From contig CAVQFQ010000016.1 of NCBI GenBank assembly GCA_963711835.1, forward strand, positions 86,359 through 150,358: a stretch of DNA of 64,000 bases. The letters are read 5' to 3'. Within the stretch, counting starts at the first letter, position 1. Every line of letters begins with the position of its first letter. Shown here in pieces: positions 3,507 through 12,457 of this stretch. The notes beneath the pieces were generated by a model, which ran no database searches, was not told the origin of the DNA, and saw only the letters and a program-made list of their open reading frames with translations. The stretch is from an uncultured delta proteobacterium. GTDB lineage: Bacteria; Desulfobacterota; RBG-13-43-22. The position numbers were made by a program, and so were the translations under genes.

Positions 3507-4292
3507 TTGACCAACGAACTTAAAGGCCTGCTCTACCCCTATTTTGCCCCGGAAGAATTTAAGGATCGAACCGCTATCGTGACCGGGGGGTCTCGGGGGA
3601 TTGGAAAGGCCGTTTCTTTGGCCTTATCCTTCCTGGGGGCCAACCTGATAGTGGTTTTTCGGGAAGACCGTCAAGCCGCCCTTTCTCTGAAAGAGACCCT
3701 TGCCGATCAAGGGGGAGCCTGTACCCTGATACAGGGAGATGTCTCCTCACGGGAAACCTGGTTGGAACTGGTCAGGCAGGCCTTGAATCAATGGGGAAGA
3801 ATCGACATCCTGATTAATAATGCCGCCCTGCTCAAAGACCGGTTGTTTCTTTTTCTCCAGGAAAATGACTGGGACCGGGTGCTGGAAATAAATTTAAAAA
3901 GCCTTTACCATGGCTGTCAGGCCGTTATCAAGACCATGATCGGGCAGCGGTTCGGCCGGATTATTAATCTGACTTCTCCCAGCGCCCTGCTGGGGCGGGC
4001 CGGTCAGACCAATTATGCGGCCTCCAAGGGCGGGGTGATCAGTTTTTCCAAATCCCTGGCCCGGGAAGTGGCCCGGGCAGGAATAACGGTCAACTGTGTC
4101 TCCCCCGGGGTGATCCGAACCGATTTATTCCAGCGACTCCCTGAAAAAACGCAACAGGAATTAATTTCCCGGATCCCGGGAGGCCGGACGGGAAAACCGG
4201 AGGAAGTGGCCGGGATTATTTTGTTCCTGGCTTCCCAGCGGTCAAGCTACCTGACCGGCCAGGTTATTGCTGTAGATGGAGGATTGACATAA
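3507..4292 (+). CDS. fabG: 3-oxoacyl-ACP reductase (SDR)
   Basis: TGGSRGIG, INNA, NYAASKGG, GQVIAVDGG; adjacent to ACP; TTG start. Confidence 0.88.
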   Translation: MTNELKGLLYPYFAPEEFKDRTAIVTGGSRGIGKAVSLALSFLGANLIVVFREDRQAALSLKETLADQGGACTLIQGDVSSRETWLELVRQALNQWGRIDILINNAALLKDRLFLFLQENDWDRVLEINLKSLYHGCQAVIKTMIGQRFGRIINLTSPSALLGRAGQTNYAASKGGVISFSKSLAREVARAGITVNCVSPGVIRTDLFQRLPEKTQQELISRIPGGRTGKPEEVAGIILFLASQRSSYLTGQVIAVDGGLT

Positions 4293-4297
4293 AAGAC

Positions 4298-4597
4298 ATG
4301 ATGGAAACCAAAACACCGGACTGGAGTAAGGATACGCCCGGACTGATAGTCTTTCTTAAGAAGATAATCATCGAATCCCTCAAACTGGAAGACCTTGATC
4401 CCGAGGAGATCAAGGAAGAGGACCCCCTTTTCGGTGAGGGACTCGGGTTGGATTCCCTGGACGCCCTGGAGCTGGTGGTGGCTGTTGAGAAATATTTTGG
4501 AGTAGTCATCGAGAATGAAGACCAGGGCAAAGAGGCCTTCGTCTCCATAGTCGGCTTAGCCCGGTATATTCAGCGGGAAGCGGCCGGCCGACCATGA
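4298..4597 (+). CDS. Acyl carrier protein
   Basis: LFGEGLGLDSLDALEL phosphopantetheine Ser motif; acidic. Confidence 0.92.
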   Translation: MMETKTPDWSKDTPGLIVFLKKIIIESLKLEDLDPEEIKEEDPLFGEGLGLDSLDALELVVAVEKYFGVVIENEDQGKEAFVSIVGLARYIQREAAGRP

Positions 4598-5022
4598 ACT
4601 GGGTGGAAACCGAGGTTAAGGTCCGTTTCGAGGAAGTAGATCTCTGGCAGATAGTCTGGTACGGCCATTACCTCTCTTACTTTGAAGTGGCCCGGATGAC
4701 CCTTCTGGAAAAATTCGGCCTCCTGATAGAAAAGGTGGCCATGTTGGGCTTCAGGACCCCCCTGGTCACCTTGAAGTGCCAATTCAAAAATTCGGCCCGC
4801 TTCAACGATACCCTTCGGGTCAAGGCGGCGGTCCTGCCTTCTGAAACGGCCTCCCTGACCTTCCTTTTTGAAATTCATCGGCCTTCCGATCAGACGCTGA
4901 TCGCCCAGGGGGAAACCACTCATGTCCTTCAGGATAAGGATGGCAAAATGATTTATAAGTTCAGCGGGGCCTTGAGGGAAAAAATAGAAGCTATGGTGGC
5001 CTATTGCAATTCCCCCGGCTAA
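4594..5022 (+). CDS. Acyl-CoA/ACP thioesterase (YbgC/4HBT hotdog)
   Basis: VRFEEVDLWQIVWYGHYLSYFEVAR motif; ATGA overlap with ACP. Confidence 0.88.
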   Translation: MNWVETEVKVRFEEVDLWQIVWYGHYLSYFEVARMTLLEKFGLLIEKVAMLGFRTPLVTLKCQFKNSARFNDTLRVKAAVLPSETASLTFLFEIHRPSDQTLIAQGETTHVLQDKDGKMIYKFSGALREKIEAMVAYCNSPG

Positions 5023-5034
5023 GGCAGGTGTCGC

Positions 5035-6288
5035 TTGCCCCCTCTTTTACCTCTGCTCCGCCTCTCCCTCTCCCAGTTATCCTATTATAAAAGCCGCTAC
5101 CTGATCATGGGTCTGCTGCTGGTTTCAGGGTCTTTGATCCTCTTCCTTTCATTGAGCTATCTTGTTTCCGTCCAGGCTTCCATCCGGGAAGGGCTGGTTT
5201 CCAGACTGACCGGGCACCTGCAACTTTATAACCCGGCGGTTAAAGAGGTATCTTTCTATCAGGATCCAACGGGGCAGATCCCCTGGATTCAGGACCCGGA
5301 AGCGCTGGAAAGGATCCTTACAGCGGTCCCGGGGTTGGCCGGTTTCACCAAAAGGATCCTGGTCGGCGGCCTGCTCCAGAAAGGGGACCGGTCCATGGGG
5401 GCCTTAGTGGCCGGAATGGAGATGAATAAAGAGATCGCCCTCAGGGGGAAAATTTCTCCTCTTTCCCTTTCGGGGATGATCTCCATCCGGGAAGGGGAGG
5501 TCTTGCTCGGAAAAGGGGTAGCCAAGGTTTTACGGGTGGCCCCAGGCGAAAAGATCCCTCTGCTGGTCCCCAATGAATCCGGCTTTATCAGCGGCCGGCG
5601 ATTTCTGGTCAGGGGTTTATTCAGCACCCCGGGTCTGGATCCCGTTGCCGAACTCTTTGTTTACCTGAACTTGTCGGATCTCCAGCATTTATTAGGTCTG
5701 GAAAAGGAAGTGGGCCATTTCGTCCTTTTTGCCGAAAAGGAAACCCGGATAAATTCCCTGACGGCTTCTCTGGCCCATCGCTTTAAAGCGCTTCACCTGC
5801 CGGTCAGCCTCTTTACCTGGGACGAGATCGGGAAACCTTTCTTAGGGATTTTAAGTCTGAGCCAAATTTTTTTCGGCCTGACCAACCTTCTTATCCTGAT
5901 TATCATCGCCCTCACGGTTGTCAATTCCACCCTGATGAACCTCTTTGAAAGGATGCCGGAACTGGGCACCCTCTTAACTCTGGGGACGAAAAGAAGCCAG
6001 CTTTTTATTTTTCTCGGGGGCGAAATTATTCTCTTTGGATCAGCAGCCGCCGTGGCGGGTTTGTTTCTGGGATGGATTTTGAGCACGATCCTGGGGCAAT
6101 GGGGACTTCCAGCCCTGAATCCGGCCATGGCCATGGCTTTCGGCCAGGAACGATTATACTTCAAAACCAATATCTGGGTCTGGCTCTTGTCTTTTGGGGC
6201 TTCCTTTCTGTTTTTAGTGCTCTCGGTCGGGGTCCCGATAAGCCGGGCCTGCCGTCTGAATCCGGCCGAGGTCTTAAAAGAGAGATGA
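5035..6288 (+). CDS. ABC permease, FtsX/LolE-like
   Basis: N-terminal TM, GHLQ, periplasmic domain, ERxxELGTL...G, three C-terminal TMs. Confidence 0.88.
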   Translation: MPPLLPLLRLSLSQLSYYKSRYLIMGLLLVSGSLILFLSLSYLVSVQASIREGLVSRLTGHLQLYNPAVKEVSFYQDPTGQIPWIQDPEALERILTAVPGLAGFTKRILVGGLLQKGDRSMGALVAGMEMNKEIALRGKISPLSLSGMISIREGEVLLGKGVAKVLRVAPGEKIPLLVPNESGFISGRRFLVRGLFSTPGLDPVAELFVYLNLSDLQHLLGLEKEVGHFVLFAEKETRINSLTASLAHRFKALHLPVSLFTWDEIGKPFLGILSLSQIFFGLTNLLILIIIALTVVNSTLMNLFERMPELGTLLTLGTKRSQLFIFLGGEIILFGSAAAVAGLFLGWILSTILGQWGLPALNPAMAMAFGQERLYFKTNIWVWLLSFGASFLFLVLSVGVPISRACRLNPAEVLKER

Positions 6289-7523
6289 AGGCCTTTCTTT
6301 TTACAAAAATGGCCTGGAATAATCTCCGGCGATACCGGCGACGGACGATCCTGGTGGGGTTGACCATCCTGCTCTCATCGGCGGTCTTAATTTTTAACAA
6401 CTCGCTCGGAAACGGCATAGAGGAACAGTTGATCCAGAACATGGTTTATATCCAGACCGGGCATATTGTTTTGACCCCCCAAGCCGACAGCCGGGACCCG
6501 GCCACGGAGACGGTCCGCTGGCAACCTTTACCCCCCGGGCTTAGCACCTTCCTGGCCTCCGATCCCCGTCTGCGCGGCATCCATCCCCGCTTGGAATCGG
6601 CGGCCCTTTTGACCGCCAACAATCAAACCATTACCCGGGCTTTTTTGGTAGGATTTGATCCTCGGGAAGAAGCGGCCTTCTTAAAGACCAGGCTTCCTAT
6701 TTTACAGGGAAGCCCCTTTTTGAGTTCGGCCTCCAAGGCGATCTTCCTTAGCCAGGAATATGCCCGGCGCCTGAAGGTCGGCCTAGGCGATCCGGTAACC
6801 CTGACCATCCATAATCCCCGGGGAGAAACCCGGATGAAGGATTTTCAGCTTGGCGGCCTATTCAGGAAAGCCAATCCCTGGCAGGAGTTTTTTGTTTTCG
6901 CCCCCCTGGATGAGGTTCAGGATCTTTTCGGAACACCGAACCAGATCAGTTCGGTCCGTCTGATTCTGCATAAGGTCCCGGATGTGACTCGGGTCAGAAA
7001 CGATCTCCAGGCTTTTATTACTAAGTGGCAGTTGCCCTGGACGGTCAAAGGTTTTCAGGAAGTGGGGGGGTTCTCTTTGGGTATCATCCAGGCCAATAAT
7101 TTTTCGATTGTCTTGATGGACAGCCTTCTTCTCCTGATAACCGCCATAGGCATCAGTCTGCTGATCCTTTTATCGCTTCAGCTCCGAGTTAAGGAGATGC
7201 GTATACTTTCTTTGCTGGGGACGCCGCCGGGATGGCTTCTTTTCAGCGTAATCCAGGAGGCCCTTTTGTTGGGGCTGCTTTTCGGGGGCCTGGGATTGGT
7301 CATGGGTTGGGGCCTGGCCTGGTATTTTCAAAACACCGGAATCCGGATCACCTCCCTTCCCATTACTTACCTTCTGGGTGGGGATAGCCTGAGGCCCCTG
7401 ATCCGCCTCCAGGGTATGGGAAAGGTTTTTTCCCTCCTCCTGGGGATCTGTTTTTTTTCCGCCCTGCTGCCCATGATCAACCTCCTCTGGGCCTCCTCTA
7501 AAAAAAGGGCCCGATCTGTTTAA
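6285..7523 (+). CDS. ABC permease, FtsX/LolE-like
   Basis: True start MKAFLFTKMAWNNLRRYRRRT at the ATGA overlap (6285); same topology as the upstream permease. Confidence 0.88.
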   Translation: MKAFLFTKMAWNNLRRYRRRTILVGLTILLSSAVLIFNNSLGNGIEEQLIQNMVYIQTGHIVLTPQADSRDPATETVRWQPLPPGLSTFLASDPRLRGIHPRLESAALLTANNQTITRAFLVGFDPREEAAFLKTRLPILQGSPFLSSASKAIFLSQEYARRLKVGLGDPVTLTIHNPRGETRMKDFQLGGLFRKANPWQEFFVFAPLDEVQDLFGTPNQISSVRLILHKVPDVTRVRNDLQAFITKWQLPWTVKGFQEVGGFSLGIIQANNFSIVLMDSLLLLITAIGISLLILLSLQLRVKEMRILSLLGTPPGWLLFSVIQEALLLGLLFGGLGLVMGWGLAWYFQNTGIRITSLPITYLLGGDSLRPLIRLQGMGKVFSLLLGICFFSALLPMINLLWASSKKRARSV

Positions 7524-7527
7524 GGAG

Positions 7528-8289
7528 ATGACCATGTTCAAAAAAAGGAAAAGCCCTGCCTGGGTTCGGTTTGCTTTAGGCCTCCCTGGATTGGTCTTGT
7601 TCCTATTTATGGCTGCCACAACCGTTATGGGAGAGGAAGTTTTGACCAATCCGGAATCCTTGCTGAACCGGTTTAAGCCTCTCGTGGCCCCCGAGACCTT
7701 TAAGGCCGTCCTTCATCTGGAGATTCAGAGACCGGATCGGCCTTTAAAAAAATATGAACTGGTCGTATGGCAGAAATCGCCGGACCTGGTCAAGATCGTC
7801 TTCCAGGCGCCGGCCTCAGAAAAGGGTAAATTTTTGCTCAAAAAAAAGGACCAGGTTTTTTTATCCCTGCCCGACCTGGAGGAGACCATCTTATTATCCC
7901 CGGCCCAGCTCAGCGGCTGGAACTTCTTTTTTGCCGAGAACCTTTTCCCCTTTTATTTTACCAGGGAGATTCTCTGGGGGGAAAGCCGCCATACGCCGGA
8001 GTCCCTGATTCTATCCATAATTCGCAAAACCGACCGCTCCCTTTGGGTGGAAGCCGCCCTTCTTAAACCGCAGGGCCCCTTAACCGGAGTCACTCTTTAT
8101 GAACCCTCGGGTAAAAAAATCCGAACCGTGTCCCTGACCTGGGATTCTTCCGCGGGAAGCGAAAGGCTCAAGGCCCTGAGCATAGAAAATTTTTACCCGG
8201 ACTCTTATCGAGCCAAAATAGGGATCGAAGATCTCCGCACCAGGCCCGTATTTCCGGACCGGTTTTTTGAATTAGGGACAAAGCCGTAA
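7528..8289 (+). CDS. Outer-membrane lipoprotein-sorting (LolA-like) protein
   Basis: Signal peptide, FxAPASEKGxxLL motif, C-terminal FPDRFF; AAGGAG RBS; context. Confidence 0.7.
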   Translation: MTMFKKRKSPAWVRFALGLPGLVLFLFMAATTVMGEEVLTNPESLLNRFKPLVAPETFKAVLHLEIQRPDRPLKKYELVVWQKSPDLVKIVFQAPASEKGKFLLKKKDQVFLSLPDLEETILLSPAQLSGWNFFFAENLFPFYFTREILWGESRHTPESLILSIIRKTDRSLWVEAALLKPQGPLTGVTLYEPSGKKIRTVSLTWDSSAGSERLKALSIENFYPDSYRAKIGIEDLRTRPVFPDRFFELGTKP

Positions 8290-8359: not shown

Positions 8360-9211
8360 TCAGGATCCGGATGCGGAAACCAGAATCTCGTTTACCCAAT
8401 CCATCATCCTTGGTGTAATCTCGTTGTAAACGACCTGGTAGGCGCGGATTTTTTTACTTAACGAAGTAATGAAGGGAAAGCCGTGGCCGGACAGGTTCCT
8501 GGCATTGACCAGCCGTTGAAGAAGCATGAAAGCCGCTTGGGCCTGGGAGAGAGGCTGGACCCGGAAGGGTTGGTCGGTCTGATATCGGGGAAAGATCAGG
8601 ATCCGAGGGCGTGCCGACCGGCAGATCCCGCCACCCCGGAACAATTCAGGGTCTATCCAGGTCTCACCGCTGAAGAAGGTCTCCGGCGCCTCTCGTCCCT
8701 CTGAAGCCACTTTCTCTTTCCAGGAAAGCCCCGAACCGCCTTTCAAAATGACGGGTCTGGGCAGACCGGATAACACCTCATCTTTTAGACGAACGGCTAT
8801 GATTTCATCGGTCAGGTAATCAAAGCCCGAAGATACCAGTTGGGCGGTCAGGGTTGATTTTCCGCTGCCGCTGTCTCCGCAAAGGATGATCCCCTGTTTG
8901 TCCCTGGCCACCCCGCCGGCATGAAAAACCGCCTGGCCACAGGAATGGGCGATCAGACTGCCTACTGCTTCCTGCATCAATCTCCAGAACAACCGGTCGG
9001 CAGATAAATCGTGGCCTACCAGGATCTCCCCCTTCCAGAGCTCAAAGGTGTCGTCCATCTCTCTGTTGATGTGAAAAATAACCGCCGGGGAGACGGCCCG
9101 GGCCGGCAGGCAATGGCGAAAATGGCGGCCGAGCCGGCTCAGGATAACCGGATCCTGGCCTTCTATTTCCACACTTACCTCGCCGAACTGGAGGACCAGG
9201 GGGTCAGCCAT
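8360..9211 (-). CDS. HPr-kinase-related P-loop kinase
   Basis: FHAGGV, Walker A GDSGSGKST, YLTDE acidic motif; lacks the HprK N-terminal domain. Confidence 0.85.
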   Translation of the reverse strand: MADPLVLQFGEVSVEIEGQDPVILSRLGRHFRHCLPARAVSPAVIFHINREMDDTFELWKGEILVGHDLSADRLFWRLMQEAVGSLIAHSCGQAVFHAGGVARDKQGIILCGDSGSGKSTLTAQLVSSGFDYLTDEIIAVRLKDEVLSGLPRPVILKGGSGLSWKEKVASEGREAPETFFSGETWIDPELFRGGGICRSARPRILIFPRYQTDQPFRVQPLSQAQAAFMLLQRLVNARNLSGHGFPFITSLSKKIRAYQVVYNEITPRMMDWVNEILVSASGS

Positions 9212-9220
9212 GGTTTAGGA

Positions 9221-9493
9221 TCAATCCAGGACCAAGACCCTGGTTTCAACAAAAAGCTGCAGGGTCTCATTCACATCCTCTTTAATCTGCTCGGCGGACT
9301 CCGGATAGGCTTCGCTCAGGAGCTGCTTGATCTCAGCTACGGTTCGTTGACCGTCACAGAGTTTCCAGATCAAAGCGGCGCTGGGGTTGCTGTGCAGGAC
9401 CTGGGTGCTGTCCGGATGAATAAGGACCAATTCGCCTTCCATGATTTCGGCTTGGCAATCAGGAACAGGCCTGGGACGGGCGGTTTCCAGCAT
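9221..9493 (-). CDS. PqqD-family / RiPP recognition element (RRE) protein
   Basis: NPSAALIWKLCDGQRTVAEI...L...YPE...DV motif; start moved to ATG 9493 (GGAGG RBS). Confidence 0.9.
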   Translation of the reverse strand: MLETARPRPVPDCQAEIMEGELVLIHPDSTQVLHSNPSAALIWKLCDGQRTVAEIKQLLSEAYPESAEQIKEDVNETLQLFVETRVLVLD

Positions 9494-9520
9494 AGGTTCC
9501 TCCTCAGGGAGCATTCGGCC

Positions 9521-9568
9521 GTCAGCAGACAGCACGCATCCGGAAAAGATCTTTTCCGGATGGACACT
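9521..9568. repeat. Repeat family B, partial copy
   Basis: CATCCGGAAAAGATCTTTTCCGGATGGACACT perfect hairpin. Confidence 0.65.
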
Positions 9569-9611: not shown

Positions 9612-10697
9612 TCAATGAATCAAAGGCAGGGATACTTTGGAAGCCAGGCGACCGTAAAGACGCCGCAGGACAAATTTAAAGAGAAAGAGAGGATGTTTGA
9701 CCCAGCGGGCGGTGAAAAGAGAACGGCCGGGGGCAAGGCCATAGTAAAGGTGGAGCCACCATTCCGAGGGAAAGAGGGTTTCCTTTAAAAATCCCCAAAG
9801 CCCTAAGTTCTTCCATTGCCGGAAGGTGATGCGGGGCCAGCCCTTGAATTCCTGTCCTATGTCTTTAGGGGCCTCCCCCGGTTTGATGGAAAACCGCTTG
9901 ACCAGTTTTTCAGAAAGAGGGCTGAGGCAGTGAAACAGGGATAGGATTCCCTGGAGGGAGGGAAGCATTTGAATCAATCGCTCCCAGTCCATCTCGTCCT
10001 CAAACTGCTCACTTATATTTATCAAATCGGTTAAAGCGATGAGCCGGGCCTGTTCGACGGCCATGTGCCGGTAGATATGTCGGAACATATCCTCCAGGGC
10101 CAGGGTGTGGGCCGTGAGCCCTTCGAAAGAAAATGGCCTGGCCCTGGCCATAAGATCGTCCACCAAAGGTTGCCCGGGGTCCCATTCCTCTTCAATAAGG
10201 CTAAAATGGACCTCCAGGGTCATTTCATAGCCGCTTACGCGGGAGGTAAGGGCCGGAAGGTGCTTTGAAGATCTGGGCTTTTTTAATTCGGCAGGATGGA
10301 CGGTAAAGCCCAAGTCGCCCAGCAGGATTTCCATGACCGGGGCCTGGCTGGGATGGACCAGCAGATCCAGATCGCGCATGGGGCGCAGACCCGGTTCCGG
10401 ATAGACCAGATGGAATAAGGCGGCCCCCTTGAGCAGGATCAACTGCACCCCGGCCTTTTCACAGGCTGGTATAATTTTGGTCAGAAGACCGGTGCGGATC
10501 TGGTTGGCCTGGCGGTGACGCAAGGTGAGGGCCTGCAGTTGACGGCGAGTAGTTTCGGGAATTTCAAGGCCGGCATTACGGCAGTGGAAATAAAAAAGGG
10601 GGGCCATCCCCTGCTCTTCGGCAAAGGGGATGAGATTTACCCATTGGGAGAATCCCTGGAATTGTTCTTTTAATAACAGACCCTGCACCCGGTCCAA
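9612..10697 (-). CDS. Nucleotidyltransferase family protein (NTP_transf_5-like)
   Basis: LLKGAAL...YPEPGLRPMRDLDLLV and LEVH motifs; start uncertain because the frame stays open upstream (ILIPCARSKL). Confidence 0.85.
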   Translation of the reverse strand: MDRVQGLLLKEQFQGFSQWVNLIPFAEEQGMAPLFYFHCRNAGLEIPETTRRQLQALTLRHRQANQIRTGLLTKIIPACEKAGVQLILLKGAALFHLVYPEPGLRPMRDLDLLVHPSQAPVMEILLGDLGFTVHPAELKKPRSSKHLPALTSRVSGYEMTLEVHFSLIEEEWDPGQPLVDDLMARARPFSFEGLTAHTLALEDMFRHIYRHMAVEQARLIALTDLINISEQFEDEMDWERLIQMLPSLQGILSLFHCLSPLSEKLVKRFSIKPGEAPKDIGQEFKGWPRITFRQWKNLGLWGFLKETLFPSEWWLHLYYGLAPGRSLFTARWVKHPLFLFKFVLRRLYGRLASKVSLPLIH

Positions 10698-10762
10698 CTT
10701 CGACCGGGCACAGGGTATTAAAATCTTAAACAGTGATTCCGTCTTAGTAAAGAAAGCGGCAA

Positions 10763-11371
10763 TTACCTGCGGCGCATCGGTGATTTTTGACCACCAATTA
10801 TTGAACGGATACCGCTAGTTGGCGTAATCGTCCCCACTGGAAACTCAACGTTACAGATGTTGTAACCGGTTGACGTACTTGCAGCAGTTAAAGTTATCGT
10901 AAAAGTTTGGGTAATGGCCCGGGCTTTTACCCGGACCGTACACGGGGTAGAGGTGGCGGGGACAGCGTCGCTACTATAATAGACGAGGTATATCTGGTAG
11001 ATGCCAGCCGCCGTATTATTGATGGGAACAAAGATGTTCTCGGGGCCAAGCCCGCAGGTATTATCAAAGTCTAACGTTGCTGTTGGTCCAACTTTATTTG
11101 CATAATAAACATGAGCTCCAAGCGGTTCGATGACATGAAGGTCAATATCAACCGACGAACCTACACAGGTTGGATCTCCGGTAGTCCAGGTCAAAGTGGC
11201 CTGAAAATCACCGGTCCCCAAAGAGGCCTGGGCAAAGGCCGGCAGGGCGCCTATGCCGACTACGGGCTTTTCCCAGCCGGGCAATAGGGAAATGGTCGTG
11301 GCCCCGGCGGCGGCGGATAAAACTTTAAGAGCCTTACGACGTGACATGGATTGGTCTTTTGGTTCGCTCAT
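10763..11371 (-). CDS. Tat-signal secreted protein with WxxPxV...LPAxAQAS leader and YfaP/DUF2135-like domain
   Basis: SRRKALK twin-arginine motif; LTW...DIDLHVIEP...LDFDN..G.GPENI domain; Thr/Ser-rich; strong AAGGAGG RBS. Confidence 0.8.
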   Translation of the reverse strand: MSEPKDQSMSRRKALKVLSAAAGATTISLLPGWEKPVVGIGALPAFAQASLGTGDFQATLTWTTGDPTCVGSSVDIDLHVIEPLGAHVYYANKVGPTATLDFDNTCGLGPENIFVPINNTAAGIYQIYLVYYSSDAVPATSTPCTVRVKARAITQTFTITLTAASTSTGYNICNVEFPVGTITPTSGIRSIIGGQKSPMRRR

Positions 11372-11785: not shown

Positions 11786-12457
11786 ATGGAGATCGTCCGA
11801 TTAGAAGAAGTTTCTAAAGAATATGTTCTTAAGGGAGAAACCATCCGGGTTTTAAGCCGGGTATCGTTTACCGTCCAATCCGGAGAATTTGTGGCCCTCA
11901 TGGGACCCTCGGGGAGCGGGAAAACCACCCTGCTGCACCTGATCGGCTGTGTGGATCTGCCCACCTCGGGCCGCATCAGCCTGGGAGGCCAGGAAACCTC
12001 AGCCTTAAACCCGGCCCGGTTGGCGGAGATTCGATTAAATCGGCTGGGCTTTATATTCCAGGCCTTCAATTTATTACCGGCCATGACGGTCCTGGATAAT
12101 TGCGCCTATCCCTTGATTCTACAGGGGGTCCCTTTTCGGGAAAGAAAGCAGAGGGTGGAGGCCATGCTTTCCCGGGTGGGCCTGGCCCATCGTCTGAAAC
12201 ACAGGCCCGAAGACCTCTCGGGAGGGGAGCAGCAAAGGGCGGCCATTGCCCGGGCCTTGGTCACCCGACCGCTCTTGGTCCTGGCCGATGAACCGACGGC
12301 CCACCTGGATGCCGAAACCGGCCAGGAGATCATCGACCTGATGTACCGCCTGAACCGGGAGGAAAAGATAACCTTTCTATTCGCCACCCACGACCCGGCC
12401 ATCCTGACCCAGGCCGGTCGTATCCTCAAACTGTCCCAGGGGAGAATTACAGAGTAG
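11786..12457 (+). CDS. ABC transporter ATP-binding protein (LolD-like)
   Basis: GPSGSGKTT, LSGGEQQR, LADEPT, ATHD. Confidence 0.93.
   Translation: MEIVRLEEVSKEYVLKGETIRVLSRVSFTVQSGEFVALMGPSGSGKTTLLHLIGCVDLPTSGRISLGGQETSALNPARLAEIRLNRLGFIFQAFNLLPAMTVLDNCAYPLILQGVPFRERKQRVEAMLSRVGLAHRLKHRPEDLSGGEQQRAAIARALVTRPLLVLADEPTAHLDAETGQEIIDLMYRLNREEKITFLFATHDPAILTQAGRILKLSQGRITE

Follow-up and report, generated by a model that had tools for sequence, protein, structure and literature searches.

A protein of 202 residues encoded in the window, a stretch of 64,000 nucleotides from an uncultured delta proteobacterium, begins with a hybrid N-terminal tag that combines a twin-arginine (Tat) motif with a leader-like docking motif. 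This tag is conserved and portable, and it accompanies genes for a PqqD-family RRE, an HprK-like kinase and a nucleotidyltransferase. We propose, with a probability of roughly 0.6, that it acts both as the recognition leader for these three proteins and as a twin-arginine export signal. The conservation of the tag, its portability, its gene linkage, the register of its motif and the intact catalytic motifs of the linked enzymes are established by the analysis, and a conserved serine just beyond the predicted cleavage site is the likely modified residue.

The tagged open reading frame lies on the reverse strand (10763-11371), with a ribosome site, AAGGAGG, 6 nt 5' of its ATG. The tag comprises residues 1-50 (11222-11371, reverse strand) and reads in the order SRRKALK, 17 uncharged residues (17-33) and W33EKP36VV38GIGALP44AFAQAS50. 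Within it, all on the reverse strand, lie the twin arginine R11-R12 (11336-11341; 94% in alignment A1), the predicted RRE-docking motif W33-E-K-P36-V-V38 (11258-11275; positions -15/-12/-10, in the register of PMC13381572) and the predicted signal peptidase I site A45-F46-A47 (11231-11239; -3 to -1). Among 195 tagged proteins A45 is kept in 92% and A47 in 99% while position 49 varies, which places the predicted cut at AFA/QAS. Counted from this cut, W is -15, P -12, V -10 and Q +1, and S50 (11222-11224) becomes the +3 residue of the predicted mature protein; we predict it to be the phosphoacceptor from the Ser/Thr conservation at this position and the precedent of S3 in linear polyphosphorylated peptides (LPP). 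The sequence-only reading, which had named SRRKALK, a hydrophobic stretch and WEKPVV...LPAFAQAS, describes what is present in this frame. It had also placed an unusual insert ahead of an AxA site; the insert is there, but the site is A45-F46-A47, inside the insert itself. In its own genome the protein gives the single tag-profile match at 74 bits, the next best reaching 12 bits (the profile includes the query sequence), and of the genome's 33 other Tat-like N-termini, picked by a crude filter, a single one has [WY]xxP at a similar place. Judged from its sequence, the tag is more than a chance likeness. In a structure model, residues 1-50 have low confidence except for a short helix.

A phmmer search with residues 1-50 returned 213 clusters at E <= 0.001, 150 of them listed (62-532 aa); one of these, P0142, proved to be an unrelated repeat and was removed, leaving 149. 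Among these listed matches, WxxP and a spacing of 11 residues from its Trp to the Pro of LP are present in 149/149, and at +3 there are 129 sequences with Ser and 15 with Thr (Ser/Thr in 144/149). Because these sequences were picked by their likeness to the tag, we also used a full-length homolog search. This gave 56 homologs: 49 tagged, one RRE-fused, two starting inside the tag and four with other N-termini. The 49 tagged homologs carry WxxP in 49, RR in 47, an AxA-type site in 47 and Ser/Thr at +3 in 49, and in alignment A1 (51 rows) W33 is conserved at 98% and P36 at 100%. The docking motif put forward from the sequence hinged on conservation of its Trp and Pro in homologs, and both are kept in all 49 full-length homologs and all 149 listed tag matches. 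The family consensus from the Trp onward is WxKPxVxxGxLPA[HF]AQxS. Over residues 29-50 three homologs are 100% identical, against 53-55% for their cargo, and the c-region is better conserved than the cargo in 43 of 50 comparisons in alignment A1. Such a contrast is typical of RiPP leaders and unlike what ordinary signal peptides show.

The proposal that the tag is portable between variable cargos is borne out by 140 cargos of at least 40 aa, which fall into 51 unrelated single-linkage groups among the matches listed. Pfam names few of them (138 sequences scanned): beta-propeller, FN3, VWA, Hint, endosialidase chaperone and carboxypeptidase-regulatory Ig-like domains. The Hint (intein-like) and endosialidase-chaperone (Peptidase_S74) cargos, of P0137 and P0084 respectively, are both self-processing modules. 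Cysteine counts in the cargos are even in 88 and odd in 35, from sequences that are non-independent. The window's own cargo, residues 51-202 (10763-11221, reverse strand), is a YfaP/DUF2135-like beta-sandwich with 4 Cys and a weakly TerD-like fold, as assigned from homolog names, PF09906 and a structure model. The model shows the beta-sandwich with high confidence; its best Foldseek match, TerD 2kxt, is weak (E 8.8e-4, TMq 0.44), and a Pfam scan of the tagged protein gave no match. Carriers of the tag belong to Chloroflexota and the window's phylum and include a genome of Polyangiaceae; no relative was found in the viral contigs searched. Four weak tag-profile matches (G005, G009, G015 and G027) were set aside, two being ordinary Tat signals lacking WxxP and two giving no score with the profile built here. 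Searched against PDB sequences, the tag profile hit nothing beyond designed armadillo repeats and PsaH chains of photosystem I, which we put down to chance. A reading of LPAHA as a signal akin to the sortase motif LPxTG was rejected, since the motif is N-terminal and the order of the elements is reversed.

Downstream of the tagged gene on the reverse strand follow, in order, an NTP_transf_5 nucleotidyltransferase (9612-10697; PF14907, E 2e-40) with D109-x-D111 intact, a stand-alone PqqD-family RRE (9221-9535; PF05402, E 1.5e-16) and an HprK-like kinase (8360-9211) with H97, the Walker A motif GDSGSGKS and D135-E136. By the profiles built here, tag, nucleotidyltransferase, PqqD and kinase are each single-copy and adjacent in the window's genome, which is 89% complete. 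PqqA, too, carries a Trp-x-x-Pro motif. The best NCBIfam match of the kinase is TIGR04352, HprK-related kinase A, at 101.6 bits, below the cut-off of 200. We take TIGR04352 to be part of a PqqD/kinase cassette of unknown role, and TIGR04353 presumably is the PqqD model of that cassette; the latter is not among the NCBIfam matches of the window's PqqD protein. A search of the literature, mostly outside subscription journals, found no description of a substrate for the TIGR04352 cassette.

The linkage of tag and cassette is very tight. Of 25 genome loci found via the cargo, 11 carry the tag with its Trp, all three cassette genes being present in 10 of them (two of the 10 come from one genome, and in one locus, L002, the nucleotidyltransferase is in pieces); in the 11th genome the cassette lies on another contig. 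Cassette genes occur in 0 of 13 cargo-only loci. The broken nucleotidyltransferase (L002:8758-9835) belongs to one of that genome's two cassette copies, in which the kinase and the tagged gene look intact. Genome-wide, the tag is present in 10 of 201 genomes of the class of G061 (Anaerolineae), G061 itself being a seed. A distinct kinase subfamily is present in 9 of the 201 (265-334 bits; next best 94), all nine of which are tagged, eight of them with the tag nearby on the same contig. The tenth tag genome, G238, has a tag with WxxP and a degenerate end beside a PqqD gene (L095:5636-6175) and no subfamily kinase; the system there may be in decay or consist of the RRE alone. Across the window's own phylum (301 genomes), the tag and a strong kinase match occur in the same three (213-350 bits; next 119). 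The counts over 201 and 301 genomes include kin that are not independent, and just a portion of the candidates from the first look was scored in each genome.

Metagenome loci extend this picture, with the limits that they are partly redundant and that loci linked to the tag served to train the cassette profiles: one or more cassette genes are present in 27 of 63 loci and in 9 of the 11 that are at least 5 kb long. The 36 loci with no cassette gene are mostly on short contigs, two of them among the 11 over 5 kb. Several genomes have three or four tagged genes, in tandem or scattered and some away from the cassette, which fits a cassette acting in trans. Other neighbours vary among 18 loci (93 of 210 frames scanned), and no recurring peptidase, cyclase or exporter was found among these frames. 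The unit is a mobile four-gene cassette. In one locus, L096, glycosyltransferase genes lie beside the cassette; apart from it, no link to polysaccharide loci, as described for LPP, was seen among the scanned neighbours.

In the window, the cassette converges with a forward-strand cluster (3507-8289) that includes a LolA_like gene, and an ABC_tran ATPase is encoded at 11786-12457 on the cassette's other side. We take the remaining members of the cluster to be a FabG-like reductase, an acyl carrier protein, a thioesterase-like protein and two FtsX/LolE-like permeases. The matching ABC ATPase on the far side suggests that the cassette was inserted into this operon. A 15-bp GC-rich perfect hairpin (10680-10716, reverse strand; z -4.7, 0/200 shuffles) follows the tagged gene and overlaps the listed TTG start of the nucleotidyltransferase; it could set a high ratio of substrate to enzyme, or the true start could lie elsewhere. 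The idea of a conserved regulatory hairpin was dropped: hairpins behind tagged genes are common in other loci and look like ordinary terminators. In those loci they are mostly weak where a cassette gene comes next, as judged by mononucleotide shuffles only. A promoter scan gave 6 sites against 2.9 +/- 1.8 expected, and these sites were set aside. In three sediment metatranscriptome runs of one study, short contigs from relatives, mostly 90-99% alike, cover parts of all four genes; contigs from RNA libraries do not show transcription, and we therefore claim no expression.

A natural fusion of RRE and tag bears on the role of the Trp. In P0050 the same cargo is preceded by a tag to which a PqqD domain is fused N-terminally, and its locus, L013, has the kinase and the nucleotidyltransferase. 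Among 70 sequences (P0050 and 69 matches), the RR motif is present in 64, and WxxP in 0 of these 64. P-V-V-x5-P is present in 59 of the 64 RR-bearing forms, 55 of the 59 having Ala at the place of the Trp. The fused forms retain RR, PVV and AQS-like ends, many with canonical RRxFLK. Absence of the Trp where the RRE is tethered is what would be expected if the Trp serves the capture of a free RRE, with the reservation that these sequences are close relatives from one query and may reflect one event. They form a large family (P0050, P0205-P0272; L013:7719-8522) in which PqqD precedes RR, a hydrophobic segment and LPVVxSIVAPxPxxAQS, with variable, often Thr/Pro-rich tails, and the twin arginine is found some 100 residues into the chain. 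For one short fused member, the AlphaFold2 model has a strand at residues 116-120 (block pLDDT 82), the counterpart of V38-A42. As the remaining strands are all in the RRE domain, this strand probably pairs with the RRE sheet, an arrangement that likeness to solved RRE-leader complexes may itself have driven in the model. The RRE domain of this member matches those of lasso B1 proteins (TbiB1, Z 10.1, rmsd 1.9, 86 aligned) in a fold search that covers residues 1-92 only and is silent on the tag.

The N-terminal part of the tag is likely a Tat signal, an assignment made by pattern. RRKAL fits the TatP regular expression RR.[FGAVML][LITMVF] (PMC1182353), and at least 13 uncharged residues follow the RR in 148 of 149 sequences among the matches listed. 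The tagged protein scores 14.9 bits with TIGR01409 against a cut-off of 16.7, and the cut-off of PF10518 is passed by 2 of 138 scanned family members, with more just under it. The tag resembles the Tat signals of these models in S-R-R-x-A/L-L-K, an uncharged stretch, a late basic residue and AxA. It differs from them in a fixed, long and highly conserved c-region (WxxPxV-x-x-G-x-LP), in conservation that continues beyond the cut to +3, and at the consensus position of Phe, which is Phe in 0 of 149 among the matches listed (Ala 107, Leu 36). Two copies of tatC are present in the window's genome, and tatC was found in 10 of 10 other tag genomes tested; TatC is common anyway, being present in 11 of 14 control genomes. 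The window's genome encodes one ordinary signal peptidase I, on another contig. Cleavage appears not to be universal, since AxA is lost while WxxP and Ser are retained in the tags of L014, L015, L016, G167 and G081. Such tags lacking AxA, with the Ser 17 residues on, were noted at L014:7911-8057, L015:5932-8135, L016:7911-8057, L097:8805-13858 and L102:5641-5781, and are candidates for uncleaved, membrane-tethered forms.

We compared the tag and its cassette with known RRE-dependent systems. LPP clusters (lppA-K-B-S-D-N of Paenibacillus alginolyticus) pair an RRE with an HprK kinase and an NTP transferase and further encode a SipW-like peptidase and a pump of the MsbA type (Popov et al. 2026, PMC13381572). 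Their precursors, of 35-200 aa and described there as restricted to Bacillota, have a YxxPxV leader (consensus YxxPxVLxHQxIxFETxxS; Y-16/P-13/V-11 in LppA), and the kinase LppK phosphorylates Ser+3; LppN gave no detectable activity in that study (PMC13381572). The tag system shares with LPP a stand-alone RRE, an HprK-like kinase and an NTP transferase in a setting without a cyclase, a conserved N-terminus and variable C-terminus, an aromatic-x-x-P-x-V leader and a Ser at +3 (in the tag, by the predicted cut), the distance from aromatic residue to Ser being 18 in LPP and 17 in the tag. It differs in having Trp for Tyr, in the additional N-terminal RR-hydrophobic extension and AxA site, in a family consensus that departs from the LPP leader consensus, in folded cargos of up to about 480 residues, and in its carriers, which are Chloroflexota, members of the window's phylum and a Polyangiaceae genome. 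The SipW-like peptidase and the MsbA-like exporter of LPP have no counterpart in the window's cassette. TIGR02228 (SipW-type) has no match in the window's genome (89% complete) or among the 93 of 210 neighbouring frames scanned, and four tag genomes have matches on contigs other than those of their cassettes; no ABC membrane-domain match was found in the same 93 frames.

In the paeninodin and pseudomycoidin systems (PbaA-PbaB1, PsmK, PsmN), PbaA binds its RRE with W-15/P-12/L-10, the register of W33/P36/V38. WxxPxL is thus an already described RRE-binding variant, and WEKPVV also fits the RRE-binding motif of lasso leaders, defined as [Y/W]xxPx[L/V/I/F/A] (PMC13381572). Here, too, an HprK kinase and an NTP transferase act on a Ser, as we propose for the tag, and phosphorylated pseudomycoidin acquires one or two hexoses in a step that requires psmN (Zyubko et al., PMC6993621). 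The tag lacks the lasso Thr at -2, and its target Ser would be near the N-terminus, as opposed to the C-terminus in the paeninodin type. A short lasso core with an acceptor Asp/Glu is replaced by a C-terminal part predicted to be a 150-residue folded domain; the lasso B2 protease PF13471 has 0 matches in the window's genome (89% complete), and no Asn-synthase match indicative of a macrolactam synthetase was found among the scanned neighbours (93 of 210 frames). Since the genome yields no B2 protease, LPP/paeninodin tailoring appears closer to the tag system than lasso cyclisation does. The sequence-only idea of a docking motif in a 'modify then export' tag is supported by conservation, portability and linkage, the closer model being this kind of tailoring. 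By its genes and leader, with no SipW, MsbA, B2 or cyclase and a different leader consensus, the cassette with its tag would belong to neither LPP nor paeninodin.

On these grounds we propose the following route. The RRE cleft very probably binds W33-x-x-P36-x-V38, the next residues adding a strand to the RRE sheet. The window's RRE retains the positions that match LppB N33 and D70 in a weak alignment (E 0.17), which we count in favour of docking; against docking of a Trp, this Asn/Asp pair marks Tyr preference in Bacillota RREs (PMC13381572). In the same paper, LppB still accepts its own leader after a Y-to-W change, and Trp leaders are bound by FusB1. The kinase would then probably phosphorylate S50 (+3), by analogy with LPP, and the nucleotidyltransferase may extend the phosphoserine with a hexose or similar group, a step suggested by PsmN that we hold at somewhat below even odds. 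The folded cargo probably exits by Tat, and an RRE bound near the hydrophobic segment would delay export until modification is complete. The even Cys counts and the presence of TatC in all 11 tag genomes tested fit export, for which we also count the cargos with FN3, VWA, beta-propeller and Ig-like matches. The housekeeping signal peptidase I would cut AFA/Q in most members, taking over, together with the Tat signal, from the leader peptidase and ABC exporter that LPP clusters dedicate to these steps. What results would be a beta-sandwich protein outside the cytoplasm whose N-terminus carries a phospho(glyco)-serine, most plausibly as a means of attaching it to the surface or sorting it.

One alternative concerns the cleavage step. 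The leader could be RRE-docked as proposed and yet stay in the membrane through its RR-hydrophobic part, inserted by Tat or otherwise, which would act as an uncleaved anchor and hold the cargo, with its modified Ser, beside the membrane. Loss of AxA in several tags that keep WxxP and Ser makes this a live rival, and the long distance from the hydrophobic segment to the cut and the position of the RR about 100 residues inside the chain in RRE-fused forms also speak for it. We consider it improbable for the family at large, given an AxA-type site in 47 of 49 full-length homologs, the retention of A45 and A47 (92% and 99%) and a -15/-12/-10/+3 register that fits cleaved leaders (PMC13381572).

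Two further alternatives divide the dual role of the tag. TorD and DmsD are proofreading proteins for signal peptides, and the RRE could likewise be a signal-peptide chaperone only, with the kinase and nucleotidyltransferase acting on a sugar or glycan and the cargo left unmodified. The glycosyltransferase genes beside the cassette in L096 would suit such a role, as would an LppN that is silent in vivo (PMC13381572). It is nevertheless unlikely in view of a Ser/Thr beyond the predicted cut in 144 of 149 sequences across 51 cargo groups among the matches listed, at the very place phosphorylated by LppK, and of a kinase subfamily that tracks the tag in 9 of 9 and 3 of 3 genomes. We regard as slightly less probable still that the RR segment offers the kinase or transferase a second surface to bind, the tagged proteins being cytoplasmic or exported in another way. 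The missing consensus Phe among the matches listed, a TIGR01409 score below cut-off and a segment whose conservation exceeds what is usual for signal peptides point in that direction. Against them stand the fit to the TatP pattern, the canonical RRxFLK of many fused forms, the uncharged stretch in 148 of 149 listed matches, cargos that look extracytoplasmic, and the fact that no peptide exporter recurs among the 93 neighbouring frames. That the tag is an ordinary Tat signal, with WxxP a chance likeness and the neighbours unrelated, draws on the shortness of a four-letter motif and on tagged genes away from the cassette, and is very improbable beside a single kinase subfamily that occurs almost one-to-one with the tag in 201 and 301 genomes, the cargo-only loci without a cassette and the natural fusion of RRE and tag on the same cargo in P0050.

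The reading we prefer, a leader that is also a Tat signal, names a likely substrate and target residue for the PqqD/HprK-like kinase/nucleotidyltransferase cassette, testable with four genes. The chemistry itself has a published peptide precedent in LPP (2026, PMC13381572), whose main text contains no occurrence of 'Tat', 'twin-arginine', 'signal peptide' or 'Chloroflex', and a search of the literature, mostly outside subscription journals, found no description of the combination of tag and cassette. New here are the cargo-only control, the genome-wide match of tag and kinase subfamily, the 51 cargo groups and the absence of the Trp in RRE-fused forms, which make a natural test case for the requirements of a free RRE. 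If the reading is true, a RiPP leader has merged with a Tat signal, RiPP tailoring enzymes act on whole folded proteins, and chemistry so far known on small peptides extends to such proteins; a portable modify-and-export tag would then be useful in protein engineering. More tentatively, and doubtful at present, the system could be general protein sorting built from RiPP parts, in which one cassette per genome reads the RRE-plus-Tat tag on any folded cargo, in cis or in trans, and a phospho-sugar on Ser+3 serves as a surface anchor or sorting handle. If so, it would parallel, at the N-terminus, the tags of sortases and exosortases, and its 50 residues would be a tool for secreting chosen proteins and phospho-glycosylating them at a specific site.
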